NCBI GenBank assembly: GCA_965248575.1
Contig: CBDFJQ010000002.1
Coordinates: 3,929,375 to 3,993,374 of the forward strand
DNA length: 64,000 nt
Direction of reading: 5' to 3'
DNA from: Planctomycetota bacterium
GTDB lineage: Bacteria > Planctomycetota > B15-G4
The notes under the pieces are model-generated. The model did no database searches. It worked only from the letters and a program-made list of their open reading frames with translations, and had not been told where the DNA came from. Below are positions 48,771 through 63,829 of this stretch, in pieces. Both the position numbers and the translations under genes were made by a program. Every line of letters begins with the position of its first letter. Positions within the stretch are counted from its first letter, which is position 1.

Positions 48771-49361
48771 ATGAAGACGTTGTTGACCCTCATCGCGCTG
48801 GCGTTGCTCGGCGCCTTTCTCGTGCTCGGATCCATCTCGGACAAGCGGGTCCCTCCGGGCAGCCTGGTCCGACCGGGCGGGCTGGACCCTTCGGGAGGTC
48901 CAGCCTTCGAGGTGTACGTCGTGAAGCCCCGCGTGAACCGACCCTTTGCAGGGCTGCTCCCAGACGGCATCTTCGGACTTCCTTCCAGCGAGCTGCGTTT
49001 CGATCACACGGGCCTTGGCGCCGAGATCCGCCGCGTTGAAGAGGATCGCCTCGAGCTCAGCGGGAATGGTTGGGAACTGCTGATCGAGACGGACGGCGAA
49101 GGGAGGGTCGCTCCAGGAACGCGCATCGTGTTCCCGTTGGAGCTCGGGGGTCAGCAGCGCATCCTGCGCTGTCGACCTGAAGCGCTGGCCTCCGCCGAAC
49201 TCATCATTACGACGCGGGAGGACTCGGACGAACTCGACGGGAGCTTCCTGGTCGAATTCGCCAGCTGCGAGATTGCGGAGTCGCAGAAGGCCATCGAGTG
49301 GCCGTCGGCGCCGCTCACCGTCCACGGGAGCTTCGTGGGGGCGTCGAGCGTGTCACGATGA
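48771..49361 (+). CDS. hypothetical protein with N-terminal membrane anchor
   Basis: ATG 48771 (MKTLLTLIALALLGAFLVLGS); stop overlaps next start (ATGA). Confidence 0.5.
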   Translation: MKTLLTLIALALLGAFLVLGSISDKRVPPGSLVRPGGLDPSGGPAFEVYVVKPRVNRPFAGLLPDGIFGLPSSELRFDHTGLGAEIRRVEEDRLELSGNGWELLIETDGEGRVAPGTRIVFPLELGGQQRILRCRPEALASAELIITTREDSDELDGSFLVEFASCEIAESQKAIEWPSAPLTVHGSFVGASSVSR

Positions 49362-49909
49362 CAAACAACGGATTCCTGAAGAGGCACGGCGTCGTGCGGA
49401 GCTCCATCAAGAAAGACCTGCTGCAGTTCGCGTTGCCTGGAATGACCCTCTTCATCATCGAGCTGCAGTTCTGCGGACGAGAGAGTCTGAGGGGGTTCTG
49501 GGGGACTCTCTGGGGGCTGATCACACATCCGGCAACCCTGCTCGAGTTTCCGGTGCACGGCCTCATCGGGCTGGGTCTCTTCGTTGCGGGGCTGTCCACC
49601 ATGCTGGTGGGCCAGATCACGCTCTGGAGGAACTATTCAGGCACCGTGCTGATTCGAAAGGACCACCGGCTCATCGCGCACGGCATCTACCGCTTCACCC
49701 GGAACCCCATCTATCTCGGCCTCATCATGGGCCTCCTGGGTCTGCCTGTTTACGCAGCAAGCCTGTATGGGTTCTTGACTGCCTTGGTCCTCATCCCGGT
49801 CATCCTCAACAGGGTCAGGTTGGAAGAGGAGTTGCTGGGCGAGGAGTTTCAACAGGCGTATCAGGAGTACATGAAGAGAACCAAGAGGCTGATTCCCTTC
49901 ATCTATTAG
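49358..49909 (+). CDS. isoprenylcysteine carboxyl methyltransferase-family membrane methyltransferase
   Basis: ...LIAHGIYRFTRNPIYLGLIMGLLGLP... and C-terminal ...EEELLGEEFQQAYQEYMKRTKRLIPFIY match the ICMT/PEMT family. Confidence 0.7.
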   Translation: MTNNGFLKRHGVVRSSIKKDLLQFALPGMTLFIIELQFCGRESLRGFWGTLWGLITHPATLLEFPVHGLIGLGLFVAGLSTMLVGQITLWRNYSGTVLIRKDHRLIAHGIYRFTRNPIYLGLIMGLLGLPVYAASLYGFLTALVLIPVILNRVRLEEELLGEEFQQAYQEYMKRTKRLIPFIY

Positions 49910-49935
49910 AGGTGTGGCGCGGGTGGTCCTGGAGA

Positions 49936-50493
49936 ATGGCAATGACTGATCGACGGGTAGCACTGCTCCGCGGAATCAATGTCGGCAAGGCGAAGCGCAT
50001 TGCGATGGCGGATCTCAGGGAGCTTTTCGCCGAGCTGGGCTACCTCGACGTCCGGACGCTGCTGAACAGCGGCAACGTCGTCTTCACCGTGGCCAAGAAG
50101 CGTGCTGGCGACGAGAGCGCCCGGATCGAGAAGGCGATCGCCGATCAGTTGGGCGTCGAGACGAAGGTGACGGTGCTCACGGGGAAGGAAGTCGCAGAGG
50201 CGGTGCGCAAGAACCCGCTGAACGATGTCGCGGACAACCCGTCGCGCCTCTTGATCATGGCACTGCGAGACTCGAAGACCGGTGCGAAGATCAAGCCACT
50301 GCTCAAGCAGAGCTGGGCGCCGGAGGCCTTGGAGGTTGGGAAGCGTTTCGCGTACTTGTGGTGCCCGAACGGCATCCTCGACAGTCGGCTCGGTCCTGCC
50401 GTGAACCGACTCGCTGGCAACGCCGGCACGTCACGGAACCTCAAGACGATGGAGAAGCTCCTGGCCCTGGTCGAAGGCGCAGAGGGCCGGTAG
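49936..50493 (+). CDS. DUF1697-family protein
   Basis: MAMTDRRVALLRGINVGKAKRIAMADLRELFAELGYLDVRTLLNSGNVVF is the characteristic DUF1697 N-terminus. Confidence 0.7.
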   Translation: MAMTDRRVALLRGINVGKAKRIAMADLRELFAELGYLDVRTLLNSGNVVFTVAKKRAGDESARIEKAIADQLGVETKVTVLTGKEVAEAVRKNPLNDVADNPSRLLIMALRDSKTGAKIKPLLKQSWAPEALEVGKRFAYLWCPNGILDSRLGPAVNRLAGNAGTSRNLKTMEKLLALVEGAEGR

Positions 50494-51172: not shown

Positions 51173-51586
51173 ATGACCCTGGCGTACGAAGAACGCATCC
51201 GACTCGCCAACGACGAGCTCATCAGCAAGGGCAGGCTCGCGATGGTGGGGGAGATCTTTGCACCCGACTACATCCTGCACTCCGGTGGCAAGCGGGCCAC
51301 GGGCACCGACTTCGTGAAGCGCTTCATTCGCCAGCTTCGTGTGGCGCTGCCGGATGTGCGCGTCGAGAAGGTGGAGTTCTTCCTGCGGCACGGGAAGACG
51401 GTGGCCTGGGAGCGAACCTTGAGCGGCACGCATGCGAAACCCCTGAAGGGGATCCCGGCCAGCGGGAATCGGGTGGAATGGCGGGACATGATGGTCTCGC
51501 GCTTCGAGGGCGAGAAGATCGCCGAGGAATGGTCTGTCTCCGAGCTGGCGGGGCAGTTGCTCCTCGCGCTTCCACGGGTCAAATGA
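51173..51586 (+). CDS. SnoaL-like ester cyclase / NTF2-fold protein
   Basis: ...GEIFAPDYILHSG...GIPASGNRVEWRDMMVSRFEGEKIAEEWSVSE matches the SnoaL-like pattern. Confidence 0.7.
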   Translation: MTLAYEERIRLANDELISKGRLAMVGEIFAPDYILHSGGKRATGTDFVKRFIRQLRVALPDVRVEKVEFFLRHGKTVAWERTLSGTHAKPLKGIPASGNRVEWRDMMVSRFEGEKIAEEWSVSELAGQLLLALPRVK

Positions 51587-51832
51587 CTCAGCGACAATTT
51601 GCCAGTGATCTCTCGGGGCGCCTCTCAAGGCGGGGGCTAGGCCCCCGATCCGGCTCTCTGGGGACATTCTGGGCATTCTCCGAACAGTTGGACGCTCGGG
51701 TGGCTTGTTGCTGAGGTTGGCTGATCGGGCATCTCGGAGTAATATCCTCTGCCGCACATGTGCTGCTGCACTGCGAGCATCAGGGGTGTTCGCGCCATCC
51801 GGTCGCCGGGCAGGTCGACTGGAACCCTCTCC

Positions 51833-52270
51833 ATGGACATTTTTGTGCTGACCTGCCGCACCCTTGCCTGGTTGCTCATCGGGGCACTTCTCGTGCCCGC
51901 TCCGATGGTCATGCATGGCCTCCCGACTTGGGGACAGGTCGGCTTGGGTTCGTCGAGCAGCGCGACTGCGGACGCCTGCAACTGCGAGATTCCGCCGGAC
52001 GCCGTCTGCTGCTCGAGTGATGAGCAGTTGATCACTCCAGCGCAATCCGTCCCCTCCAGCGTGCAAATGCTGGTGGGTTGCGGTTGCGGCTGCGGTTCTG
52101 CTGGAGAAGGAAGCGCCGTCCTGCCGGATCCACTCGGCCGTCTGCAATTCGTTGTGGGCATCACTCACGATTCGCTTCTGGTGCCGCTTCCGCGCGCACA
52201 CGGAATCGGGGAAGACCCGAAGGAACATCGCGATGGACCGGAACCGCCTCCTCCCCGATGCGCGATTTGA
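51833..52270 (+). CDS. hypothetical Cys-rich protein
   Basis: ATG 51833 (MDIFVLTCRTLAWLLIGALLVPAP...) followed by CNCEIPPDAVCCSSDEQ and VGCGCGCGSAGEG; weak coding evidence. Confidence 0.3.
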   Translation: MDIFVLTCRTLAWLLIGALLVPAPMVMHGLPTWGQVGLGSSSSATADACNCEIPPDAVCCSSDEQLITPAQSVPSSVQMLVGCGCGCGSAGEGSAVLPDPLGRLQFVVGITHDSLLVPLPRAHGIGEDPKEHRDGPEPPPPRCAI

Positions 52271-52516
52271 TCTGGAGCGGCAATCGGTCCCAGCTTGAGT
52301 GAAGGCTGAGGCACCGCTCGCTCGACGTGCACTGTTTCGTGCACGCCGTGTGTCGCTGCCCCCGCGATTCCGCGAAGCGCCAGCAGTCCTCAGTGTTGAG
52401 AACGCCCGCGCTCGCAACCGGTGCGATGTGAACTTTTTCCGGTCGCGCCCCAAATCTGCACATCACCGTTTCATAGCGGTCATCTCAGTACTTTCATCTT
52501 TCCTAGGAACAACACC

Positions 52517-52936
52517 ATGAAGATCATTCTCAGTGCCGCAGTTCTTCTCTTCGCCATGTCCACGGCCAGCGTCGCTTCCGTGGGAGCCATTTCTGGCACC
52601 GCCGCTGGCGTGTTGGAGTCGGTCGCCATTCTTCAGCACGAGTGGCTTCACGATGAGTACGGATCATCCTTCGGGTCACACGGCTTGGAAGAGGCGGCCA
52701 CGGATCTCTACGCGGGCCTTCTCGATTGGGAAGCGGGCGGGCTCACGACCGAGGCCGATCTGTTCGGCTTCAAGGTCGTGCTCGACAACGCCTACTTGAG
52801 CTACACCCAGAGCATCGCTCTTGCGGGTGTGCTCGGCCAGGGCGATGCCACGGCCGACCTGTACGACAAGGTGATCGGCAACATGTTCTTGCGCTTGAGC
52901 TTCAGCCTGAACAACCTGGATCCCTTCGGTACCTGA
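52517..52936 (+). CDS. small secreted hypothetical protein
   Basis: ATG 52517; signal peptide MKIILSAAVLLFAMSTASVASVGA; composition less GC-skewed than neighbours. Confidence 0.5.
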   Translation: MKIILSAAVLLFAMSTASVASVGAISGTAAGVLESVAILQHEWLHDEYGSSFGSHGLEEAATDLYAGLLDWEAGGLTTEADLFGFKVVLDNAYLSYTQSIALAGVLGQGDATADLYDKVIGNMFLRLSFSLNNLDPFGT

Positions 52937-53095
52937 GAAACCCGAAGCATCCGATGTCTTGAGTAACCCCGGAGCCCGGGTCGGAAAGTCTGCTTTCCGG
53001 CCCGGGCTTCGACTGTCTTGTCGGCGCTCCCGCTGGCAAGCTGTCGCCGTCGTGCACGACCACTTCGAACGCCTGGCCTGGGTGAGGGAACGCCT

Positions 53096-53524
53096 GTGTT
53101 ACGTGAGTACCAAGCCCCGGATCTAGAGCCTCTCCTCAACACCTGGGCGGCCGCTTCGACGCAGGCGCATCCGTTCCTCACGGCCGAGTTTCAGGCCCAG
53201 GAGCGCCTCAACATCCCGAACCTCTATCTTCCGAACGCGGAAACCTGGGTCTGGGAGGAGCAGGGTCGCGTCGTGGCCTTCATCGCACTTCTGGGAGATG
53301 AGGTCGGAGCGCTCTTCGTGGATCCCGCGCAGCAGCGAAAGGGCATTGGTCGTGCCTTGATGGACCACGCGCAGTCCTTGCGAGGCCAGCTCGAAGTGGA
53401 GGTGTTCAAGGAGAACGCACTCGGTCGGAGCTTCTATGCGAGCTACGGGTTCGAGCTGATGCATGAGAATCTCCACGAACCGACGGGGCAGCAGGTCCTG
53501 CGGCTGCGGTTCTCGGAGACCTGA
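53096..53524 (+). CDS. GNAT-family N-acetyltransferase
   Basis: GTG start; ...VAFIALLGDEVGALFVDPAQQRKGIGRALMDHA...FYASYGFEL is the GNAT acetyl-CoA-binding core (Q/R-x-x-G-x-G/A). Confidence 0.7.
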   Translation: MLREYQAPDLEPLLNTWAAASTQAHPFLTAEFQAQERLNIPNLYLPNAETWVWEEQGRVVAFIALLGDEVGALFVDPAQQRKGIGRALMDHAQSLRGQLEVEVFKENALGRSFYASYGFELMHENLHEPTGQQVLRLRFSET

Positions 53525-53749
53525 TGGGTGCCGAACAGCAGGCGTCCGGCACCGCGTCCTGGAGGTCTCGCTGGTGAAGGGTGGGCACGGCTCAAGCACC
53601 GAGCGGAACGGGAACAGCGGCCGTTCGAGAGGTGTTATCTTCGAGGCCAAGGGCACGGTGATGGAAAAGGAGCGGGCTGCCCTCAGCGATGGGTCAACGT
53701 GGTTGCACCTGTCGGTCATCGAAGTCGCTCCCCGAGCGAGAAGAGGGCC

Positions 53750-54274
53750 ATGCACACGGCTGGACGTTTCATCCGTCTCCTGGTTTCGGCGACTTGTCTG
53801 GTCGCGCTAGGGGCCAATGCACTCGTGGCCATCCCAGCGCTGAAGGCCGAGCGCATCACGCTTGAGAGCCGGGGGGACAACGGCCCTTACGGCAAGAGCG
53901 CCTACAGCTTCCGGTATCGCAGCCAGAAGCTTGAGGGCCATCGAAATTAGGTCGACCTCGTCTTCAACGGCTGTGGCAACGTGCACATCTTGAGCGGTGG
54001 TGCGACCAATCGGGTCGCCGAGGTGGAAGGCAAGAAGCTGGAGAAGGTGAGCGAGCTTCCATCCAGCGGATGGTTGACCAGGTGTTTCACGCCGCGAAAG
54101 TCAGCGCTGTACGTGATGCAGATCGAAGACGAGCAGCAGAAGTTCGCCGTCAAGTTCCGCGTCGTGGAGGCCAAGCCCAGCAAGGTGGTTTTGGAATGGT
54201 TGCCGTTCACGGAAGAGCCCAAGGACGAGCGCGGAACGCAGGGGCAATGTGGTGGTGCCCATGAGTGTTCCTGA
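53750..54274 (+). pseudogene. secreted protein gene interrupted by a single in-frame TAG (53948-53950), or two adjacent small ORFs
   Basis: ATG 53750 (signal-like MHTAGRFIRLLVSATCLVALGANALVA) reads to TAG at 53948; the same frame continues as VDLVFNGCGNVHILSGG... to the stop at 54272-54274 (track ORF 53981..54274). Confidence 0.3.
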
Positions 54275-54321
54275 GCGCCATGACCACGGCCTGCTCTGGC
54301 GCTGGCGCAGGGTGCAGAACA

Positions 54322-54702
54322 ATGACTGAGCCGCTGAGCCTTGCCGGACGAATCGCTAGCGTGAGATGCGCACTCCACGGCGTCTGGCATGTGCTCAAGT
54401 CGCAGCACAATGCCTGGATTCATGCCGCGGCGACGCTCGCTGTGCTCGGGCTGGGTCTGGGGCTCGGCCTCGGGGCTCTTGAATGGGCGTTGATGCTCAT
54501 GGCCATCGCGTCGGTCTGGGCTGCGGAGGCCTTCAACACGGCCGTGGAGCTTCTCGCGGATGTCGTCTCGCCAGACGTTCACCCCGTCATCGGGAAAGCC
54601 AAGGATGTCGCAGCCGGCGCGGTTCTCATCACGGTCCTGGGCGCGGTTGCCGTAGGTGTGTTCGTGTTGGGCCCTCACGTCCAGCTTGCGCTGGGCGCTT
54701 GA
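54322..54702 (+). CDS. dgkA: diacylglycerol kinase (DgkA family)
   Basis: ...NAWIHAAATLAVLGLGL...LEWALMLMAIASVWAAEAFNTAVELLADVVSPDVHPVIGKAKDVAAGAVLI is the conserved DgkA core. Confidence 0.75.
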   Translation: MTEPLSLAGRIASVRCALHGVWHVLKSQHNAWIHAAATLAVLGLGLGLGLGALEWALMLMAIASVWAAEAFNTAVELLADVVSPDVHPVIGKAKDVAAGAVLITVLGAVAVGVFVLGPHVQLALGA

Positions 54703-54706
54703 AGTC

Positions 54707-55036
54707 ATGACGGCGCACCCGACAACTCAACTGTTGCAGCACTTCCTTGCTGCCCTTGCCTACCGCACGCAGAAAGCGGTTCGCGATGCGCCTGTGTCCT
54801 ACCCCGAGTTCCGTATCGCGGCCAACGTCCGGACACCTCATGAGCTCATCTGGCACATGACGGGCGTCATCGGCTACGCCGCCAGCTTGTTCCGTGGCGA
54901 GCCCATGCGTCCGGATCAGCTCGGGTCGTTCCAAGCGGAGCTCCAGCGTTTCCACGCAACCCTCGAGGCGCTCGCGCAGCTGTTGGAAACCCAGGAGCTT
55001 CCCGAGCGGACGACAGCCAAGCAGGTGCAGGGATGA
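54707..55036 (+). CDS. hypothetical protein
   Basis: ATG 54707, 4 nt after the dgkA stop; followed by an ATGA-overlapping 31-codon hydrophobic mini-ORF (55033..55128) that I do not call. Confidence 0.45.
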   Translation: MTAHPTTQLLQHFLAALAYRTQKAVRDAPVSYPEFRIAANVRTPHELIWHMTGVIGYAASLFRGEPMRPDQLGSFQAELQRFHATLEALAQLLETQELPERTTAKQVQG

Positions 55037-55577
55037 AGTCCTGGATCTGGATGATCGGCCTGGCGGTCGTGAGCCTGGGCTTTGGTGCCCTGTGCGTCTG
55101 GATGGGCAGCGCCATGCAACAGGTCTAGGCCCTGCCCTCGTGGCTGAAGCACGACGAGGTCAACGGAACCCAAGAGCTGTTCATGTTCGCCTGGGCGTTT
55201 GCTGTCGGCGTCGGTGCGCATCGCGCGACCTCGACCAAGAAGAGCTGAGGTGCGCGCTCACCCCGCTGGGGGCTGATCGCAGACCACCGCGGTCAACCTG
55301 GGAGGGTCTGGTGTGTTGTCACCAGGGAAGGGCGCGAAGGGGTTTCCCGCGTCAAAAGCGAAAAAGTCGGCGCACGGGGTATCGAGGGGCGAACGGGCCT
55401 TCCCCGCGGCCCATGTCGCAGTCCGGTTCAGAACCCCATTCCCCCGCTGCAGCGAACCGCACGCCATGCAGGCGCGGGGGGCGGACGGCGTCAAGCTGCC
55501 GGAGCACACCTCCGATGAGGGGAGGCGCGGACGCGGGGGCTCAAGGGCCTCTTCGTCCGACCTGACCGGAGACTCAC

Positions 55578-56621
55578 ATGAGCACCAGCCCTTCCCGCAC
55601 TCACCACCTGTTGTGGGTGGCGACCCTGGTCGTCCTGGTGGGGTTCATGCTTCAGGAGCCTGGCTCCGTGGCAAAAGCCGTGAACGCGGAGGGCGCAGGC
55701 GCCAGTGAGGCGGCTACCGCGAGCAGCTCGCCCTCGATCCTCGGCCTGCTCCAGCCTGTTCCCAAGGCGGTGCTCTTGAACCCCAGGCGACGCGAGCTGG
55801 GTCGCAAGCTGTTCCACGACGGCAAGCTGTCCGTCGATGGCAGCATCTCGTGTGCGAGTTGCCATGACCTGGAACGCGGCGGCGCCGATGGTCGCCCCGT
55901 GTCGCTGGGCGTCAACGGTCTCCTGGGGCAGATCAATGCGCCGACCGTCTTCAACTCCGGTTTCAATTTCCGGCAGTTTTGGGACGGGCGTGCGGCCTCG
56001 CTCGAAGACCAGGTCGACGGGCCCATCACTCATCCTTCGGAGATGGGGTCCGATTGGCAGACGATCCTGGCGAACCTCCAGAGTGACGCGGACTACAGCG
56101 ATCTGTTCGAAGCGGCCTACGGCGGAGAGATCAGCCAAGACACGGTCTCCGACGCCATCGCGACCTACGAACGTTCGCTGATCACACCCAACTCCCCCTT
56201 TGATCGATTCCTGCGAGGTGAGACCGACGCACTGGATGCGCAGGGGCTGCACGGTTATGAGCTGTTCCTCGAACTTGGCTGCGTCACGTGCCACCAGGGC
56301 GTGAACATCGGCGGCAACATGTTCCAGGTGTTCGGTCGCATGCAGTCGTTCTTTGCAGACGACGAGCAGATCAGCTACGCCGACAAGGGGCGCTTCAACA
56401 TCACCGGCCGCGAAGAGGATCTGCACAAGTTCAAGGTGCCCACCTTGCGAAACGTGGCACTGACCGCTCCCTATCTGCACGACGGTTCGGTGGAGACACT
56501 GGAGGAGGTCGTGCAGATCATGGCGCGGCACGAGCTGGGGATGGAACTCACCTCGGATGAGGTGGCCGGCCTGGTGAGCTTCCTGCATGCCCTGACTGGT
56601 GAGCAGCCGGAGACGCCATGA
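55578..56621 (+). CDS. di-haem cytochrome c peroxidase (CCP/MauG family)
   Basis: Two haem-binding CxxCH motifs (CASCH, CVTCH) and conserved ...FKVPTLRNVALTAPYLHDGSVETLEEVV; N-terminal signal/TM segment. Confidence 0.85.
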   Translation: MSTSPSRTHHLLWVATLVVLVGFMLQEPGSVAKAVNAEGAGASEAATASSSPSILGLLQPVPKAVLLNPRRRELGRKLFHDGKLSVDGSISCASCHDLERGGADGRPVSLGVNGLLGQINAPTVFNSGFNFRQFWDGRAASLEDQVDGPITHPSEMGSDWQTILANLQSDADYSDLFEAAYGGEISQDTVSDAIATYERSLITPNSPFDRFLRGETDALDAQGLHGYELFLELGCVTCHQGVNIGGNMFQVFGRMQSFFADDEQISYADKGRFNITGREEDLHKFKVPTLRNVALTAPYLHDGSVETLEEVVQIMARHELGMELTSDEVAGLVSFLHALTGEQPETP

Positions 56622-59557
56622 GGGGCAAAGGAGCCCGTCTCGGTTCAGGCCTGGCGATCCTCGCTTTCGCGTGTTCGCTCGCCGTTCTGGTGTGGCCAGA
56701 GCGCTCGACGCTCGGCGGCGTGGATGGCCTGATCCTCGAATTGCGTCAACGGGAAGTCGACCTGAACGAAGAGCTGCTCAAACTGCAGAGCGGCTTGGGG
56801 CGTTCCTACGATTCGATGGCCTACCAGGTCGTTGAGTTGCGCGATGTCCAGATGCGGCTGGGGGACGAGCTCGGGAGCTTGCCGTCCGACATGCGCACTT
56901 CGTTGGAACCCATGGTCAAGCGCTACTCCTCCCTGGTGGAACAGCGCGAGCTCATCGCCGAGGACTACCCGTCGGCTGACTCCTTGCTCCGCAACTCCAC
57001 GCGCTTCCTGCCCCGGGCTCTTTCAGATTGCTTGAGCAAGCTTCCTCCTGGTGAGGGGACACGGGACCTTGCGGAGCTCTGTGATGAGCTGGAGCAGCAG
57101 GTGCTTCGGCATCTCGTCACGGGTGACGAGGACACCTTGAAAGCGGCGCACATCGGGTTCTCTGAGTTGGCGTCGGCCGCGGAGCTGGCTGGGCGAACCC
57201 GCGAAGTGGGCGTGTTGCTGGCCCACTCCAAGACCATCCTGGAAACAAAACCCCATACCGACGAGCTGCTGGTGGCGCTCTTGGATGTTCCAACCCCGGC
57301 CCTGCTCCAGGACATGATGGAGCTTTCACTGGCCCACGGTCGGCAGGAGCTTCACGAGGCATCGAGGCTGCGCCGCCTGCTGGTGGCCCTGGCTGCCGTG
57401 CTGGGCCTGTACATCTTCTGGACCGTCAATCGCTTGCGCCGTACAGCCCATGACCTGGACGAGAGCAACGCGGAGATCAGGGCTCAAAGCGAGTACGTGG
57501 AGAGCCTCGTGGGCTCCATGGCCGACCCGCTGCTGGTGGTGGACTCCGAGGGAAACCTGAAGCGAGCCAATGGCGAAGCCTGCAACCTCCTGGGGTGGCA
57601 GGCGTCCGATCTGGTCGGCCGCTCCTTCCTGAGCTTCGTCTCCGTGAGCGGTGTGCGCTCGGGCGACGACGCCGAGAGGATGTTGGCGCGCGCCCGGAGT
57701 GGCGAGGAAGTGCGCAACGTGAACGCCGTGTTGTTGGCTCGAGACGACGAGCATGTGCCGGTGACCCTGTCCTGCGCGCATGTGTCGTCAGAGGTCCGCA
57801 AGGGCACAGACCTCGTGGTGCTGGCCCGTGATCAGCGGGAGCTGCTGGCCTTGCACGAAAGCGAGATGGAGTTGGCGGCAGCAGAAGCCTCGCAGCGCGC
57901 GTTGGAGCGGCGGCAAGAGGATCTGCGCAACGCCATGGAGGCAGCCGAGAGCGCCAACTTCGCGAAGGGGCGCTTCCTGGCCAACATGAGCCACGAGCTG
58001 CGGACTCCGATGAACGGCATCATCGGCATGTCAGAGATCATGCTGATGGATGAGGCCTCGGAGGAAGTCCGCGACGGCCTCGAGACGATTCATGCTTCCG
58101 CGCTGAGCCTGCTGGGCATCCTCAACGACATTCTCGATTTCTCGAAGATCGAAGCGGGCTCCCTGGAGTTGGAGCGCGCCGAGATCGACGCAGTGGAAAC
58201 CATCAGCCAGGTTGCCGAGTTGCTTGCACCCCAGGCACGCGAGAAGAAGCTGGCCCTGGGTGTGCTCGTGGCGCCCGGCACCCCGCGTCTCGTCAGCGGC
58301 GATCCGTTGCGCTTCCGCCAGGTCGTGATGAACCTGACAGGCAATGCCGTGAAGTTCACTCAGTCGGGCAGCGTCAGCTTGCGCCTCTGCCTCGGTGAGC
58401 AAGGCCGCCTACGGGTGGAGGTGCAGGACACCGGAATCGGTGTGGACGACGCCGTGAGGGAGAGCATCTTCAGTCCGTTCAGCCAGGCGGATGCTTCCAC
58501 CACCCGACGCTTCGGCGGCACGGGCCTCGGCCTGTCCATCTCCGTGCAGCTGGCAGAGATGATGGGCGGGCGCCTTGGGCTCGACAGCGAAGTCGGCAAG
58601 GGCAGCACGTTCTGGTTTGAGGTGCCCGTGCAGGGGCCGGAAGGCGCGCTCGATGATCAGGGTGCGACCGAGTCGAGCGCCGCGCTGGCCCCGAGCGTTC
58701 AGAGGCCGGGCCTGGATGGCATGGGGGTCCTCGTGCTAGGAAGCCGACCGGCTGCCCTGGAGATGTTGCAGGAAGCCCTGGAGTTCGAAGGGGCCGTGGT
58801 GGACATCGCCCAGGATGGTGAGGAGATACCGACCAGTGAGCTGAGCCGCGCCGATCTCGTGCTCGCAGACGGTGAAGAGCATGAGGCGCGGGCGACACGC
58901 TGCGCCGACACCCTGGGCGTGCCCATGGTCGTGCTGGAGAATCAACGCCGCAGCGCTTCGGGGCAGCGCAACGGCGCGCGCCTGCATTGGCCCCTGGTGC
59001 AACCGATCCTGACGGATCTGGTCCACCGGCTCGTCCGCGGCCAAGGCGATGAGGGTCCGACATCCGATCAGAACGAAACGAATTCGAGTCTCTTCCCGAA
59101 GGGCACGTCCGTGGAGACGGGGGTTCAGGGCGGTCGAAAGGACGACTCCCCTGTCCTGCTCAGCCAGTCCACGGGCGGACAGTTCGAAGTGCTGATTGTC
59201 GAGGACAACGTCACGAACCAGCGCGTGGCGCGCCTGCTGCTCGAGAAATGTGGAGTCCAGGCGGTGACGGCGGACAACGGGCAGAGCGCCCTCGACATGT
59301 TGGCAGAACGCGACTTCGATCTCGTGTTCATGGATTGCCAAATGCCGATCCTGGATGGCTACGAGGCCACGCGTCAGTTGCGGGAACGCGAGGGGGAGGC
59401 GCGCCATACGATCGTGGTGGCCATGACCGCCAACGCCATGAAGGGCGACCGTGAGCGTTGCCTTGTCGAAGGCATGGACGATTACGTCACGAAGCCCTTG
59501 AGCCTCGTGGAGCTGCGCAAGGTGATGGGGCGCTGGGCCGGGCCCACTCTGGCCTGA
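56618..59557 (+). CDS. hybrid sensor histidine kinase / response regulator (periplasmic sensor - TM - PAS - HisKA - HATPase - REC)
   Basis: ATG overlaps ccp stop (ATGA). H-box FLANMSHELRTPMNGIIGMSE; N/G-box ...NLTGNAVKFT...DTGIGV...GGTGLGLSIS; receiver domain VLIVEDNVTNQRVA...DLVFMDCQMPILDGYEAT...KP. Confidence 0.85.
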   Translation: MRGKGARLGSGLAILAFACSLAVLVWPERSTLGGVDGLILELRQREVDLNEELLKLQSGLGRSYDSMAYQVVELRDVQMRLGDELGSLPSDMRTSLEPMVKRYSSLVEQRELIAEDYPSADSLLRNSTRFLPRALSDCLSKLPPGEGTRDLAELCDELEQQVLRHLVTGDEDTLKAAHIGFSELASAAELAGRTREVGVLLAHSKTILETKPHTDELLVALLDVPTPALLQDMMELSLAHGRQELHEASRLRRLLVALAAVLGLYIFWTVNRLRRTAHDLDESNAEIRAQSEYVESLVGSMADPLLVVDSEGNLKRANGEACNLLGWQASDLVGRSFLSFVSVSGVRSGDDAERMLARARSGEEVRNVNAVLLARDDEHVPVTLSCAHVSSEVRKGTDLVVLARDQRELLALHESEMELAAAEASQRALERRQEDLRNAMEAAESANFAKGRFLANMSHELRTPMNGIIGMSEIMLMDEASEEVRDGLETIHASALSLLGILNDILDFSKIEAGSLELERAEIDAVETISQVAELLAPQAREKKLALGVLVAPGTPRLVSGDPLRFRQVVMNLTGNAVKFTQSGSVSLRLCLGEQGRLRVEVQDTGIGVDDAVRESIFSPFSQADASTTRRFGGTGLGLSISVQLAEMMGGRLGLDSEVGKGSTFWFEVPVQGPEGALDDQGATESSAALAPSVQRPGLDGMGVLVLGSRPAALEMLQEALEFEGAVVDIAQDGEEIPTSELSRADLVLADGEEHEARATRCADTLGVPMVVLENQRRSASGQRNGARLHWPLVQPILTDLVHRLVRGQGDEGPTSDQNETNSSLFPKGTSVETGVQGGRKDDSPVLLSQSTGGQFEVLIVEDNVTNQRVARLLLEKCGVQAVTADNGQSALDMLAERDFDLVFMDCQMPILDGYEATRQLREREGEARHTIVVAMTANAMKGDRERCLVEGMDDYVTKPLSLVELRKVMGRWAGPTLA

Positions 59558-59580
59558 GTACCGGCTAGGCCATGCGTCGG

Positions 59581-60297
59581 TTAGACCGAGCGCGTGATGC
59601 CGCCGTCCACGCGCAGGTTCTGCCCGGTGATGTAACCCGCGCCCTCGGACGCGAGGAAGCCGATGACGTCGGCGATCTCCTGGGATTTGCCATAGCGTTG
59701 CATTGGGATGCGCTCCCGGAACTCGTCACGCTCCGGCAGGCTGTCGATGAAGCCCGGCAACACGTTGTTCATACGGATGTTCTCGGCGGCGTAGGTGTCC
59801 GAGAACAACTTGGCGTAGCTCGCGAGGCCGGCGCGGAAGACACCCGAGGTGGGGAAGACGGGGTCGGGCTCGAAGGCCGCGAAGGTGGAGATGTTGATGA
59901 TCACTCCGGACTTCTGGCGTTGCATGATGGGCGTCACCAGTCGCGTGGGCCGGGCGACGTTCAGGAAGTAGACCTCCAGGCCTTGGTGCCAGTCCTCATC
60001 AGAGAGCTCCAAGAGCGGGCCTTTCGGGCCGTGCCCCGCGCTGTTCACGAGCACGTCCACGCGACCCCAAGTCGCCATCGCGTCGTCCACCAGGCGCTGC
60101 AGGTCGGCCTGGGATTGATTGGAGCCCGTGACTCCCAGGCCACCCAGCTGCTTGGCCAGGGCCTCACCCTTGCCGGACGAGGAGAGGATGGCGACGTGAA
60201 ACCCGTCCGCTGCGAGCTTGCGGGCCGCAGCCGCTCCCATGCCGCTGCCGCCGGCTGTGACGATGGCGACTCGTTGTTCGCTCACGGTTCCGCTCAT
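59581..60297 (-). CDS. SDR-family short-chain dehydrogenase/reductase
   Basis: Cofactor-binding VAIVTAGGSGMGAAAA (TGxxxGxG-like) and NSAG plus downstream catalytic region. Confidence 0.8.
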   Translation of the reverse strand: MSGTVSEQRVAIVTAGGSGMGAAAARKLAADGFHVAILSSSGKGEALAKQLGGLGVTGSNQSQADLQRLVDDAMATWGRVDVLVNSAGHGPKGPLLELSDEDWHQGLEVYFLNVARPTRLVTPIMQRQKSGVIINISTFAAFEPDPVFPTSGVFRAGLASYAKLFSDTYAAENIRMNNVLPGFIDSLPERDEFRERIPMQRYGKSQEIADVIGFLASEGAGYITGQNLRVDGGITRSV

Positions 60298-60354
60298 GGC
60301 GTCGTTCTCGCTGTGGAGGAGGGCGCGATGGAGCTGCCCTGGATCGCGAGCAGC

Positions 60355-63222
60355 CTACAGCTCGGCCAGGCCGATGCGCGCATCTTCCAGGCCTTGCCTG
60401 ATGAACAGGATGTTCGTGGGATCGGAGTCGAGCAGCAGGTCGGCTTCGCCCAGCTCGTCGAAACGTTGGAGTGCGAACTCGTAGTGCTCGCAGGCAAGTT
60501 CCCACTGAGCGAGCCCTCGGTGTGCGTCCGCGCGGAGCGCAGCGCCCACCATGGTCATGCGCTGTGCCCAACGGTCCGTGGGGTCCTGTTGGAGGACCAG
60601 GTCGAGTTGGTTGCGGAAGTCGAGGGCCCGCGCCATGGCTTCGGCGGGGTCGCCGGCTTGCATGGCCACCATGCCCAGCTTCAGGACCGCGAGCGCACGG
60701 TGAATGCGCGCGATGAGGTCGTCGGGAGCATGGGCCAGGACTGCGTCGGCTTCAACCAACGCACGTTCCAAGAGCTCCGTGGCGACCGCCGGCTCACCGC
60801 GCGTCACCCGGAACTCTCCGGCATCCACGAGAAAGGCCATCAGGTCGCGACGGGCATCGAGGTCTGCGGGATGGCGCAACAGTGCCGATTCCACCCGGTT
60901 GATGGCGTCGGCATTGTGGACGACGGCGGCGTCCCACTCGCCCAGCCGGGCCGACGTGCGCGCCATGTCCTGCTTGACCAGCCAAGCCTCCCGGGCTGCA
61001 CCCAGGTCGAGGGGGTCGGCCAGCATCAGTGATTCGAGGCGCTTCCAAACATCGGCGAACAGCTCAGAGGCTTCACGCTCTCCCCCGGTGGCGCTCAGGA
61101 TCCGCCCATGAAAGCGCTCGGCCATGGCCAGGTCGCGCTCGGCGAGAGGGGTGCCCGGCGCGCTCTTGTGCAAAGTGCGAGCGAGGGTCACGGCGTCCGC
61201 ACCACAACGCTTTGCTTCGTCGAGGTTGCCTGCTCGCTCGTGCAGTTCGCCGGAAGAGACCAGGACCGCGAGCAGGGGGCGGAAGGCGCGAGGGTTCTTG
61301 GGGTCGGCTTGGGCCACGTCGCGCGCGAGCTGCAGCGCCCGGTTCAGTTCGGTCAAGGACTCGCTGCTGCGGCCCAAGACCCCGAGCACCTCGGCCTTCT
61401 CGACGAGAGCTGTGACCAGCAGCGGAGAGTCGGGTTGCTGTGCAACGCCCAGCTCGTGCACCAACTGTTCTGCTTGCTGAAGGCGGTCGAGAGCGCGGTC
61501 TACTCGACCCTGCCGTTGCTCCACCTTGGCAAGACGCTGGAGTGCCTGGACCCGCGCCTCCGTGAGGTCAACGTCTCCGGGCGTCTGGGCCAGTTGCCGT
61601 TCCACGAGCTGGAGATGCTTGGCGTAGCTCGCGGCGGCTCCCTCTGCATCGCCCAGGCTTGCGCGTGAGGCGCGACCCTGGACATCTCCCATGCGCAGGT
61701 AGCCTGCGCTGAGCTCGGCGAGCAGCGCCTGATCGTCGCCGGCCTCCAGGCTCAAGGCGTCCAGGTAGTGCAGGGACGTCTCCACCAGGCGTGCGCGCGC
61801 GCGGGTCGCACCGGGCAGGGCGGCAATCTCGTCGTGCAGGCCGTGTAAGAGTTCGCCGGCCAGCGAACGAATCTGATCGAAGCGGCTGACGGCCCGGAAC
61901 TCGGCGCGTTCGGCGCGGCTGCGGGCCAGGCCTTCGTCGAGGTAGAGCTGCAGGATGACGACCAGGGATGTGCTGAGGACCACCAGCAGGAGTGCGACAC
62001 CACCGACCAAGAGCTTGTTGCGCTGAACGAAGCGCAGAGAGCGATAGCTGGTGGAGTGGGGGCGGGCGAGCACGGGCAGTTGCGCCCTGTATCGGCGGAG
62101 GTCTGCGGCCAAGGCGCCCACCGAGGCGTAGCGGCGTTCCACGTCCACGCGCAGGGCCGTGGCCAAGATGACGTCCAGGTCGCCCCGGAGTGCATGGCCG
62201 AGGCGGGTTGCGTCGGTGTGGCGATGGGCCGCGCGGTCCTTGGGAGGCAGCGTTCCGTCCAGCTCGCGCCGCACCACCTCGCTGGCAGGGGGCGGTTCCT
62301 CGTTCACGGAGGCGGCTCGCTGGACCAGGCTGGTGCCCCGGTCCGCGTGAGGGGCCACACCCGTCAGCAGCTCGTAGAGCACCACGCCCAGGGAGTAGAT
62401 GTCCGACGCGGTGCTGACAGGCTCGTCGCGCAACTGCTCCGGGCTGGCGTATCGAGGAGTGAGAGGACGTGGGCCCTCCAGGGTCCGTTCTCCGGCCTGG
62501 CCTGTCTCCGAGAGCAGGCCCGCGATGCCGAAGTCCAACAGCCGCGGCTCACCGTCTGGAGTGACGAGCACATTGGCCGGCTTGATGTCGCGGTGGACGA
62601 CGAGCTGCCCATGGGCATGTTCCACGGCATCGCAGACCTTCAGGAAGAGGTCGATGCGCTCGTGGATTGCGAGCTCGTGCTCGTCGGCGTGCCGATCGAT
62701 GGGCGTGCCGTGCACGAGCTCCATGGCCAGCCAGGGGTGACCGAGCCCGGCCAGCGTGGAGTCGCCCGCCGAGATCTCCTCGGTCCCGCCGTCCAACAGG
62801 CGGGCGATGTTCGGATGGTTGAGGCGCGCCAGGGCATCGCGCTCCACGCCGAAGCGCTTCCGGTAACCCTCACCGAGCAAGCTGGGGTGCAGCAGCTTGA
62901 CGGCTGCGCTCATGGCGAAGGAACCGTCGGCGCGTTCGGCGCGGTAGACCGTCCCCATGCCCCCGCTGCCGAGTTGTTCGTGCAAGCGCCAGGGCCCGCA
63001 TTGCTGCAGCATGCTCGGGGCGGGGAGTGGGTCCTCCTCAAGCGCGGGTGGGGCCAGGAAATCCGGATCGGAGTGCTCTTCATCGAGCACGGATCGGGCC
63101 AGGGACAAGAGCTCGGCATCCCCCTGACAGGCCTCAGCCAGCTCGTCGTCGCGGCGCGCTGCGGGCGCTGCCAGGACGCGATCCAGTACGGGGCGCACCC
63201 GTGCCCAGACGTCAGCCTTCAT
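60355..63222 (-). CDS. Ser/Thr protein kinase with TM segment and long C-terminal TPR-like domain
   Basis: Hanks kinase motifs: GSGGMGTVYRA, AVKLL, HRDIKPANVL, DFGIA, SPEQ, DIYSLGVVLYELLTG; TM LVGGVALLLVVLSTSLVVIL; start trimmed to ATG 63222. Confidence 0.8.
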   Translation of the reverse strand: MKADVWARVRPVLDRVLAAPAARRDDELAEACQGDAELLSLARSVLDEEHSDPDFLAPPALEEDPLPAPSMLQQCGPWRLHEQLGSGGMGTVYRAERADGSFAMSAAVKLLHPSLLGEGYRKRFGVERDALARLNHPNIARLLDGGTEEISAGDSTLAGLGHPWLAMELVHGTPIDRHADEHELAIHERIDLFLKVCDAVEHAHGQLVVHRDIKPANVLVTPDGEPRLLDFGIAGLLSETGQAGERTLEGPRPLTPRYASPEQLRDEPVSTASDIYSLGVVLYELLTGVAPHADRGTSLVQRAASVNEEPPPASEVVRRELDGTLPPKDRAAHRHTDATRLGHALRGDLDVILATALRVDVERRYASVGALAADLRRYRAQLPVLARPHSTSYRSLRFVQRNKLLVGGVALLLVVLSTSLVVILQLYLDEGLARSRAERAEFRAVSRFDQIRSLAGELLHGLHDEIAALPGATRARARLVETSLHYLDALSLEAGDDQALLAELSAGYLRMGDVQGRASRASLGDAEGAAASYAKHLQLVERQLAQTPGDVDLTEARVQALQRLAKVEQRQGRVDRALDRLQQAEQLVHELGVAQQPDSPLLVTALVEKAEVLGVLGRSSESLTELNRALQLARDVAQADPKNPRAFRPLLAVLVSSGELHERAGNLDEAKRCGADAVTLARTLHKSAPGTPLAERDLAMAERFHGRILSATGGEREASELFADVWKRLESLMLADPLDLGAAREAWLVKQDMARTSARLGEWDAAVVHNADAINRVESALLRHPADLDARRDLMAFLVDAGEFRVTRGEPAVATELLERALVEADAVLAHAPDDLIARIHRALAVLKLGMVAMQAGDPAEAMARALDFRNQLDLVLQQDPTDRWAQRMTMVGAALRADAHRGLAQWELACEHYEFALQRFDELGEADLLLDSDPTNILFIRQGLEDARIGLAEL

Positions 63223-63829
63223 GGCCTCGCTCCGGGTCGGTTGGCTCTCCGCGCGGGTCGTCCGGTTCTGACGCGAGGGCGGTGCGCAACCAGATGCGTG
63301 CGAGGCGCCAACGCCGCTCCGCGGTGGAGAGGGAGCAGCCCGCTGCTTCGCAGGTCTCTTCCATGGAGAGACCGCCGAAGAAGCGCAGCTCGATGATGCG
63401 CACGAGGTCGGGCTCCTCCTGAGCCAGGCGTTGCAGGGCCTCCTCGAGGGCAAGCAGGTCCAGGCCGTTGGCTTCGTAGCTTTCGACGGCCACGTCCAGG
63501 GGGACGCGCTCGCGATCGCCGCCGCGCTTGGTGGCGAGCCGCGAGCGGGCGTGATCCACAAGGACGGAGCGCATGGCCCGGGAGGCGAAGCACAGGAAGT
63601 GCTCGCGCCCGTTCCAGCTGACCCCCTTGCTGATCCGCAACCAGGCTTCGTGCACCAAGGCCGTGGGTTGCAGGGTGTGCGCGGCAGACTGGGCGTTCAT
63701 GTGTTGTCGGGCGATCCGGCGCAACTCGTCGTAGAGGGCCGCCAGCAGCGGAGCCTCGGCGTCCTGCTCCCCACCGGAGACCCGGCGTAGGAGTTCCGTG
63801 GCGTCGGGCGTGTTGGGGGCGGACGACAT
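63212..63829 (-). CDS. ECF-type sigma-70 family factor (kinase-associated type)
   Basis: ...LLAALYDELRRIARQHMNAQSAAHTLQPTALVHEAWLRI... (region 2-like) and ...RIIELRFFGGLSMEETCEAAGCSLSTAERRWRLARIWLR (region 4 HTH); 3' end overlaps the kinase start by 11 nt. Confidence 0.8.
   Translation of the reverse strand: MSSAPNTPDATELLRRVSGGEQDAEAPLLAALYDELRRIARQHMNAQSAAHTLQPTALVHEAWLRISKGVSWNGREHFLCFASRAMRSVLVDHARSRLATKRGGDRERVPLDVAVESYEANGLDLLALEEALQRLAQEEPDLVRIIELRFFGGLSMEETCEAAGCSLSTAERRWRLARIWLRTALASEPDDPRGEPTDPERGHEG

Follow-up and report, generated by a model that had tools for sequence, protein, structure and literature searches.

A di-haem cytochrome c peroxidase encoded with DAHL-domain receptors in nine bacterial phyla: a probable oxidant- or redox-sensing module

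The genes considered here lie at positions 55578 to 59557 of a 64,000-nucleotide stretch of DNA from a Planctomycetota bacterium (GenBank assembly GCA_965248575.1, contig CBDFJQ010000002.1, positions 3,929,375 to 3,993,374 of the forward strand), the whole of which we call the window. The first gene encodes a di-haem cytochrome c peroxidase and the second a hybrid sensor histidine kinase whose periplasmic region is a DAHL domain (Pfam PF19443). We found that the linkage of this peroxidase clade with DAHL is near-obligate, spans phyla and is independent of the output domain to which DAHL is joined. As far as sequences can tell, the pair is probably an uncharacterised and widespread oxidant- or redox-sensing module; with moderate confidence, we favour the view that the peroxidase would serve the DAHL receptor as its periplasmic input subunit and report on H2O2 or redox state.

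Conservation of the gene pair

The two genes and the signals around their starts are the following.

55578..56621, + strand: gene of the di-haem cytochrome c peroxidase, 347 amino acids, ATG start; like bacterial cytochrome c peroxidases (bCCPs) and the YhjA module
56618..59557, + strand: gene of the hybrid sensor histidine kinase, 979 amino acids, ATG start
56618..56621, + strand: stop/start overlap ATGA, read from the sequence; the kinase ATG shares 4 nucleotides with the peroxidase TGA
55568..55571, + strand: Shine-Dalgarno-like GGAG, 6 nucleotides 5' of the peroxidase ATG, read from the sequence
56609..56612, + strand: Shine-Dalgarno-like GGAG within the peroxidase 3' end, 5 nucleotides 5' of the kinase ATG, read from the sequence

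An earlier note on this DNA had claimed that the peroxidase stop overlaps the kinase ATG, and reading the sequence bears this out. Both open reading frames (ORFs) have the coding signature expected in this 65% GC genome, the GC content by codon position being 0.65/0.44/0.81 for the peroxidase and 0.70/0.43/0.81 for the kinase, and both products were matched with identical ends in a public protein collection (P0001 and P0121), where a single 5.29-Mb contig encodes them. The overlap is not there by chance, since 47 of 55 non-redundant homologous pairs also overlap: by 4 nucleotides in 38 cases, by 1 nucleotide in 7 and in another way in 2.

The same note had proposed conservation across genomes as one check on the pair, and the pair passed it when approached from either gene. 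In 5 of 5 peroxidase homologues at 52-66% identity, located on unrelated contigs with differing flanking genes, a DAHL-protein gene lies directly 3' of the peroxidase gene and overlaps it. For a wider survey one genome per GTDB species was kept and the 80 best relatives of the peroxidase were taken: a DAHL protein is encoded immediately downstream, on the same strand, at 50 of these 80 loci (47 recognised by a local DAHL profile, and 3 divergent Campylobacterota by Pfam), and two of the remaining loci end too near the peroxidase for judgement. The linked peroxidases come from nine phyla in all: Pseudomonadota (alpha, beta, gamma and zeta), Campylobacterota, Myxococcota, Planctomycetota, Verrucomicrobiota, Omnitrophota, Chloroflexota, Acidobacteriota and Cyanobacteriota. 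They cluster together in a neighbour-joining tree. The unlinked peroxidases belong to other clades, i.e. YhjA/quinol-peroxidase-like, a Myxococcota clade, a Methylobacter clade and canonical CcpA, and are followed by unrelated genes (tRNA synthetase, CLC channel, GlgB and others), so that they provide an internal negative control for the linkage.

On the DAHL side, an exhaustive phmmer search with the DAHL region of the window finds 602 representative proteins. A CCP_MauG gene stands directly upstream in 5 of 5 DAHL representatives with enough upstream DNA, the contig of a sixth being too short to judge; the peroxidase gene is likewise immediately upstream of DAHL in 5 of 5 plasmid lineages examined, which brings the total for this side to 10 of 10. 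On annotated plasmids from Agrobacterium vitis, Rhizobium etli, Vitreoscilla filiformis and Gloeocapsa PCC 7428, a gene labelled "cytochrome c peroxidase" precedes one labelled "DAHL domain-containing protein" or "ATP-binding protein", and tblastn finds the same pair on an unannotated replicon of Rhizobium sullae. In the plasmids of A. vitis, R. etli and V. filiformis a response regulator comes after the kinase. The occurrence of the operon on Agrobacterium, rhizobial, Vitreoscilla and Gloeocapsa plasmids indicates that the module is mobile.

Concerning the Agrobacterium plasmids, the operon of peroxidase, DAHL kinase and response regulator is found in A. vitis F2/5 (locus L095, record 51303-55276) and on A. 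fabrum plasmids H8 and H9, where it lies a few kb from virC1/virC2-family genes.

No third conserved gene accompanies the pair in the neighbourhoods surveyed, and the flanks vary from locus to locus. The two proteins diverge together (Mantel r 0.55, with none of 2000 permutations as high), DAHL evolving much faster than the peroxidase, with a mean p-distance of 0.80 versus 0.53.

Constant input domain and variable outputs

DAHL is present in each of the 48 partner proteins scanned, while their cytoplasmic part differs. HATPase_c was found in 26, GGDEF in 18 (16 of them with EAL) and receivers in 11; MCPsignal, Guanylate_cyc (adenylate/guanylate cyclase) and the SpoIIE phosphatase appear once each. 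As the outputs are interchangeable and DAHL is constant, the conserved unit is the peroxidase plus DAHL, an input module. The fact that the output varies while the periplasmic DAHL stays further places the haem protein on the input side, which supports, at the level of domain content, the earlier proposal that this protein could be the sensing partner. Besides, outputs such as c-di-GMP, cAMP and chemotaxis are not explained by a regulator lying beside its target gene.

Some partners carry an additional C-terminal domain: the chemoreceptor zinc-binding domain CZB in 5 of the 48, all DAHL-PAS-GGDEF-EAL proteins (locus L036, 5804-8842, and four other loci), and hemerythrin in 1 of the 48, a DAHL-GGDEF protein (L045, 5939-7906). 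In such cases a haem partner in the periplasm would be combined with a sensor of the metal or oxidant type in the cytoplasm, which we take as a thematic hint. Regulators of the REC-HD-GYP type (HD_5) adjoin DAHL hybrid kinases at L008/L009 (4840-5916), L091 (6507-7610) and L094 (6879-7913), the last having a REC-GGDEF gene in addition; with such neighbours even the kinase versions may feed c-di-GMP turnover.

The peroxidase

The features of the peroxidase on which the argument relies are listed here.

55578..55676, + strand: predicted Sec signal peptide, residues 1-33, by inspection of the translation (hydrophobic core LLWVATLVVLVGFML, cleavage-type site between AKA and V)
55851..55865, + strand: haem c motif 1, CASCH, residues 92-96, peroxidatic haem; aligned with the N-terminal CXXCH of solved bCCPs
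55911..55913, + strand: Val112, at the position of the distal His (G-H-x-W) of activatable bCCPs; alignment with 3o5c and 1iqc
56280..56318, + strand: haem c motif 2 and clade signature, CVTCH-Q-G-V-N-I-G-G-N, residues 235-247, electron-transfer haem
56520..56522, + strand: Met315, aligned with the Met axial ligand of the electron-transfer haem in solved bCCPs

The protein had been called a di-haem cytochrome c peroxidase, and rightly so: it has two CXXCH motifs and matches Pfam CCP_MauG (PF03150) with an E-value of 2.9e-62 and 210.2 bits, for a cut-off of 25.6. In a phmmer search of the PDB, solved bCCPs match it at E 1e-63 to 1e-85 (218-289 bits). The closest solved relative is E. coli YhjA (9qdt), with 48% identity over residues 58-341 (E 4.9e-85), and CcpA of S. 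oneidensis follows at E 5.7e-79; the MbnH-type 6e1c reaches 1e-43 (150 bits) and MauG 1e-22 (about 84 bits). Its NCBIfam scores are below the cut-offs, both for MbnH (TIGR04039, 194.4 versus 362.85) and for MauG (TIGR03791, 156.8 versus 443.85). The bridging Trp135, the catalytic Gln145 and Glu155 and the Ca-site Asn120 fall in the aligned bCCP columns, whose roles, like that of the Met315 column, come from the bCCP literature. Gln145, Glu155 and Trp135 are almost invariant among the linked peroxidases, the CASCH-position motif is kept in 55 of 56 linked and 31 of 31 unlinked homologues, and the Met315 position is invariant in the 87 homologues compared. By these sequence features the window protein is a genuine peroxidase of the bCCP branch, for which H2O2 reductase activity is predicted. 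The additional label "MauG-like" given in the earlier note does not stand in a strict sense, because the Met ligand is retained and the MauG and MbnH scores are below cut-off.

The protein is predicted to be secreted to the periplasm, from the signal-like segment seen in its translation. The AlphaFold2 model has a lone helix at residues 7-25 followed by a disordered linker; with a pLDDT (predicted local distance difference test) of 66.6, and below 50 in the haem regions, this model served to retrieve PDB titles and not for residue-level arguments.

The distal-His position is occupied by V, I, L, M or A, and by His in none of the 120 closest database homologues; the window protein reads G-V-N-G there, and YhjA (9qdt) likewise has no distal His. 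We considered the loss of this residue as a hallmark of the sensor-linked peroxidases and rejected it, the unlinked clades being without it too.

A comparison of 56 DAHL-linked with 31 unlinked peroxidases gave only a few positions that are kept in the former and differ in the latter: Q240, N243 and N247, just after the second CXXCH, and position 289. In the linked proteins Q240 is found in 50 of 56, N243 in 46 and N247 in 53; in the unlinked ones Q240 and N247 are not among the common residues listed and N243 occurs in 9. At position 289 Ser prevails among the linked peroxidases and Thr among the unlinked ones, the window protein having Thr. In bCCPs the segment after the second CXXCH borders the electron-transfer haem, at the place where the electron donor docks, and for that reason we regard the Q240/N243/N247 segment as a candidate contact site for DAHL.

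The kinase and its DAHL domain

56630..56695, + strand: transmembrane helix 1, about residues 5-26 (AlphaFold2 helix 5-24; hydrophobic stretch GLAILAFACSLAVLVW)
56729..57373, + strand: periplasmic DAHL domain, residues 38-252, predicted stacked double four-helix bundle
57374..57433, + strand: transmembrane helix 2, about residues 253-272, continuing the last DAHL helix (AlphaFold2 helix 226-289; LLVALAAVLGLYIFWTV)
57497..57832, + strand: cytoplasmic PAS, residues 294-405 (Pfam PAS E 6e-10, PAS_4 E 2e-8)
57962..58159, + strand: HisKA, the dimerisation and phosphotransfer (DHp) domain, residues 449-514, phospho-acceptor His459 in SHELRTP (Pfam HisKA E 1.6e-21)
58298..58633, + strand: HATPase_c, residues 561-672 (Pfam E 3.4e-28), with N, G1 and G2 boxes intact
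58634..59188, + strand: segment of about 185 residues, 673-857, between ATPase and receiver, no Pfam family
59189..59521, + strand: C-terminal receiver, residues 858-968, Asp906 in FMDCQMP (Response_reg E 3.8e-28)

The architecture read earlier from the letters, i.e. a periplasmic N-terminus, PAS, HisKA/HATPase and a receiver, is confirmed throughout by Pfam. HisKA, HATPase_c and Response_reg all exceed their cut-offs, and the ATP-binding boxes are NLTGNAVKFT at 572 (N), DTGIGV at 604 (G1) and GGTGLGLS at 633 (G2); the Pfam scan finds no histidine phosphotransfer (HPt) domain in the kinase. What had been described simply as a periplasmic N-terminal region is the defined family DAHL, matched between the two transmembrane helices at E 7e-29, with 101.5 bits where the cut-off is 38.

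By sequence, a profile built from 53 DAHL domains matched no solved structure in the PDB. The AlphaFold2 model of the domain, made from an alignment of 80 representatives, has a pLDDT of 94 and a predicted template modelling score (pTM) of 0.82, and the predicted fold is a stacked double four-helix bundle resembling McpS-HBM, PilJ and TorS. Across the 80 representatives D65 and H203 are invariant and Y64, N126, S127, P132 and R252 are conserved at 90% or more, all of these residues being present in the window protein. From the helix register, the conserved residues should cluster at the waist between the two bundles. The family has a signature on the long helix, E-x-F-K-S-x-N-A-x-L-x-N-S-L-x-Y-x-P, from which the window DAHL deviates at F117Y, K118P, N121D and Y130F.

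The window DAHL (56618-57487) is unusually divergent: outside its own genome its relatives, among 1.84 billion representatives, have about 30% identity at most, unlike the window peroxidase, which is 50-66% identical to its relatives.

In the segment from 673 to 857 an alternating hydrophobic pattern is seen by eye (GVLVLGS...DLVLADG...PMVVLEN), which recalls a degenerate receiver. This assignment was rejected: Pfam does not support it and a BLASTP comparison with the real receiver finds nothing.

How the pair might work

The following scheme would fit a peroxidase acting as input subunit; the physical contact, the direction of the regulation and the H2O2 or redox stimulus are what we infer from the sequences. 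Translational coupling would ensure that the secreted peroxidase is made in fixed proportion to the kinase, and the peroxidase would dock on the periplasmic DAHL domain, a double four-helix bundle of the HBM/TorS kind. The haems would react with H2O2, their oxidation and ligation state being set, more generally, by the oxidant versus the periplasmic electron supply, and DAHL might read either this state or a changed binding of the peroxidase. The signal would then pass from DAHL through transmembrane helix 2 and PAS to the DHp and catalytic core, altering autophosphorylation at His459 and the transfer to Asp906, and from there could reach an unlinked HPt protein and a response regulator.

Several observations weigh against this scheme. 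The genes near the pair in the window include none for an electron donor, an HPt protein or a response regulator. Inside the linked clade, one peroxidase gene (L029, 5891-6811, of Oscillatoriales cyanobacterium USR001) has an OpuAC-type substrate-binding gene downstream; this is the only clear exception within the clade, and may be a secondary loss or rearrangement. Common descent by itself would likewise lead one to expect the Mantel correlation. YhjA-like and other unlinked clades are without the distal His, so that its loss is uninformative on sensing. Finally the catalytic site, fully conserved as it appears in the alignments, would suit an ordinary detoxifying enzyme equally well.

A different role for the peroxidase would be to use H2O2 to oxidise a residue of DAHL itself, as MauG and MbnH modify proteins. 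Near-invariant Tyr64 and invariant His203 would be the candidate targets, and the oxidation could be either a one-time maturation making a ligand site or a signal-dependent covalent switch. The CCP_MauG superfamily indeed has enzymes that modify adjacently encoded partners, MauG-preMADH structures and the MbnH-type 6e1c being among the matches of our protein; MbnH is its best NCBIfam match by score, DAHL offers one invariant His besides Tyr, Asn and Ser residues that are nearly so, and the peroxidase-DAHL linkage is strict and one-to-one. We nevertheless consider this role unlikely, as the MbnH and MauG scores are far under the cut-offs, the similarity to bCCPs in the PDB is much higher than that to MbnH or MauG, and the Met ligand of the electron-transfer haem is invariant among the homologues. 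The known bis-Fe(IV) protein-modifying enzymes use a Tyr ligand (BthA paper, PMC6405878).

It is also conceivable, though improbable in our view, that the haem protein is the input subunit for a signal other than H2O2: nitric oxide, O2, CO or sulfide at an open five-coordinate haem, or else the redox poise of the cytochrome c pool in the periplasm, which the electron-transfer haem would report. All the linkage evidence applies equally to such a signal. With the distal His absent, the peroxidatic haem is likely accessible to ligands; the clade-specific motif adjoins the electron-transfer haem; and the hosts are enriched in microaerophiles, denitrifiers, iron/sulfur oxidisers and cyanobacteria, for which O2, NO and redox gradients matter. 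On the other hand Gln145, Glu155 and Trp135 are almost invariant in the linked copies, which argues that the chemistry of peroxide turnover is under selection, and we know of no bCCP that acts as a gas sensor.

Mere co-expression would mean that an ordinary detoxifying peroxidase is transcribed together with a sensor for some other signal, as in an autoregulated peroxidase supply. In its favour, the catalytic residues are all intact, the plasmid examples have a response regulator after the kinase as autoregulated operons do, and bCCPs are established H2O2 scavengers (PMC6405878). It seems very improbable to us, as it leaves unexplained that no sensor domain but DAHL ever takes the place of the partner, that the pairing extends to the non-transcriptional outputs GGDEF/EAL, adenylate cyclase, MCP and SpoIIE, that the peroxidase gene is upstream of DAHL in 10 of 10 cases with an overlap in 47 of 55 pairs, and that other peroxidase clades show no DAHL neighbour.

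Comparison with known systems

The peroxidase, as the proposed input subunit of DAHL, can be set beside several families of known proteins. YhjA, the trihaem quinol peroxidase, has in common with the window protein two CXXCH motifs, the bridging Trp, the catalytic Gln and Glu and the Met ligand; neither has the distal His, YhjA showing G-V-G-G in place of G-H-x-W. By contrast the window protein, with two haem motifs in 347 residues, is without the third, N-terminal haem domain and the membrane anchor of YhjA, and its alignment to 9qdt begins at residue 128 of the latter. The YhjA-like genes of our sample have no DAHL gene downstream; the signature CH-Q-G-x-N-x-G-G-N is that of the window protein.

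Classical CcpA proteins (Shewanella, Pseudomonas, Paracoccus, Nitrosomonas, Geobacter) are of the same fold family, with the same cofactor and catalytic residues and 37-44% identity. They are stand-alone scavengers fed by small cytochromes or cupredoxins, and have a distal-His loop for reductive activation where the window protein has Val112. The canonical-type loci of our sample (L077 and L089) have unrelated neighbours.

TorT-TorS, LuxP-LuxQ, ChvE-VirA and XylFII-LytS each have an accessory protein in the periplasm through which the signal reaches a sensor kinase, and we propose these systems as a parallel; the window pair shares with them a co-encoded periplasmic partner that is conserved across genomes. 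But TorT, LuxP, ChvE and XylFII are cofactor-free solute-binding proteins whereas the partner here is a redox enzyme with two c-type haems; the DAHL profile reveals no detectable sequence relation to TorS; and the peroxidase-DAHL pair drives non-kinase outputs too, unlike systems of the TorT-TorS type.

In H-NOX/HahK-HnoK, NosP/NahK and HbpS-SenS, ligand or redox state is perceived by a haem protein distinct from the kinase or diguanylate cyclase with which it is co-cistronic. For H-NOX and NosP the argument has likewise been that a single haem partner goes with outputs that can be exchanged. These proteins bind a single haem b in an unrelated fold, H-NOX and NosP being cytoplasmic, and a complete peroxidase carrying covalent haems is not found among them. 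HbpS-SenS works outside the cytoplasm, in response to redox stress (PMC4991794).

The enzymes MauG, MbnH and BthA, of the same superfamily PF03150, are each encoded beside a specific partner protein and act on it. The window peroxidase differs from them by its Met instead of Tyr ligand and its sub-cut-off scores, and is far closer to bCCPs; the gene beside it is that of the DAHL kinase, and no MbnP-like gene is present there. As for DAHL, its model resembles the HBM of McpS and the periplasmic domain of PilJ in structure, at an identity of 8-13% (8% for HBM), while Pfam assigns DAHL and reports no HBM family in the kinase. HBM binds organic acids directly and, to our knowledge, has no obligate protein partner.

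Generic RefSeq labels for both genes and the Pfam DAHL family are already known. We found no description of a peroxidase-DAHL or peroxidase-kinase sensory module in open-access papers, in bioRxiv or in the CCP_MauG sequence-network paper. We would put it at about evenly balanced that a complete di-haem peroxidase has been recruited as a DAHL receptor subunit, forming a phylum-spanning and so far undescribed class of haem-based extracytoplasmic oxidant or redox sensors. Histidine kinases, c-di-GMP enzymes, adenylate cyclases and chemoreceptors would all take their input from such a class, which would be the equivalent of H-NOX and NosP in the periplasm.

Periplasmic sensing of H2O2 or redox state, ahead of cytoplasmic sensors of the OxyR/PerR type, is poorly understood. 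If our favoured explanation is true, DAHL, a domain without assigned ligand, gains a function, and the large bCCP clade now annotated "cytochrome c peroxidase" would have a signalling rather than a scavenging role. There would be a direct tie between exposure to oxidants and the outputs c-di-GMP, cAMP, chemotaxis and phosphorelay, in environmental lineages of many kinds: iron/sulfur oxidisers, denitrifiers, cyanobacteria, Campylobacterota, pseudomonads, and the bearers of rhizobial and agrobacterial plasmids. The pair was found in the cultivable hosts Pseudomonas mandelii, Dechloromonas agitata, Pseudothauera lacus, Vitreoscilla filiformis, Agrobacterium vitis F2/5 and Gloeocapsa PCC 7428, which allow a direct test of the hypothesis.

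NaCl-adapted Leptospirillum ferriphilum shows some of its strongest inductions in the genes of a cytochrome c peroxidase (10.9-fold) and of a diguanylate cyclase/phosphodiesterase (11.2-fold) (PMC9053815); this co-induced peroxidase and GGDEF/EAL gene could not be tied to the peroxidase-DAHL module.

Neighbourhood of the pair

On the 5' side of the peroxidase about 870 bases (54709-55577) hold no convincing gene, and Rfam reports no family in this 5' region; neither a sigma-70-like promoter nor a convincing terminator was seen around the operon. Three ORFs were taken as spurious: one upstream at 54894-55565 (+ strand, 223 amino acids), without a coding pattern of GC at third codon positions and without Pfam match, and those at 59572-61032 and, antisense, at 55491-56588, which have no family match or are without the coding signature.

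On the 3' side the genes are convergent with the kinase. They encode a short-chain dehydrogenase/reductase (SDR, 59581-60297) and a Ser/Thr kinase with TPR (60355-63561, - strand), so that, by the neighbouring window genes and the family scan, no response-regulator gene adjoins the kinase. At locus L004 (2464-5133) a similar Pkinase-TPR gene and an ECF (extracytoplasmic function) sigma factor gene stand just upstream of the pair; the recurrence of a Pkinase-TPR gene near the pair may be a coincidence in kinase-rich genomes.

Further upstream, the window contains a DUF1697-containing ORF (49273-50493, + strand) and the gene of a GNAT acetyltransferase (53018-53524, + strand). A GNAT gene is also found directly 3' of the pair at L001 and L008, where its presence is probably coincidental.

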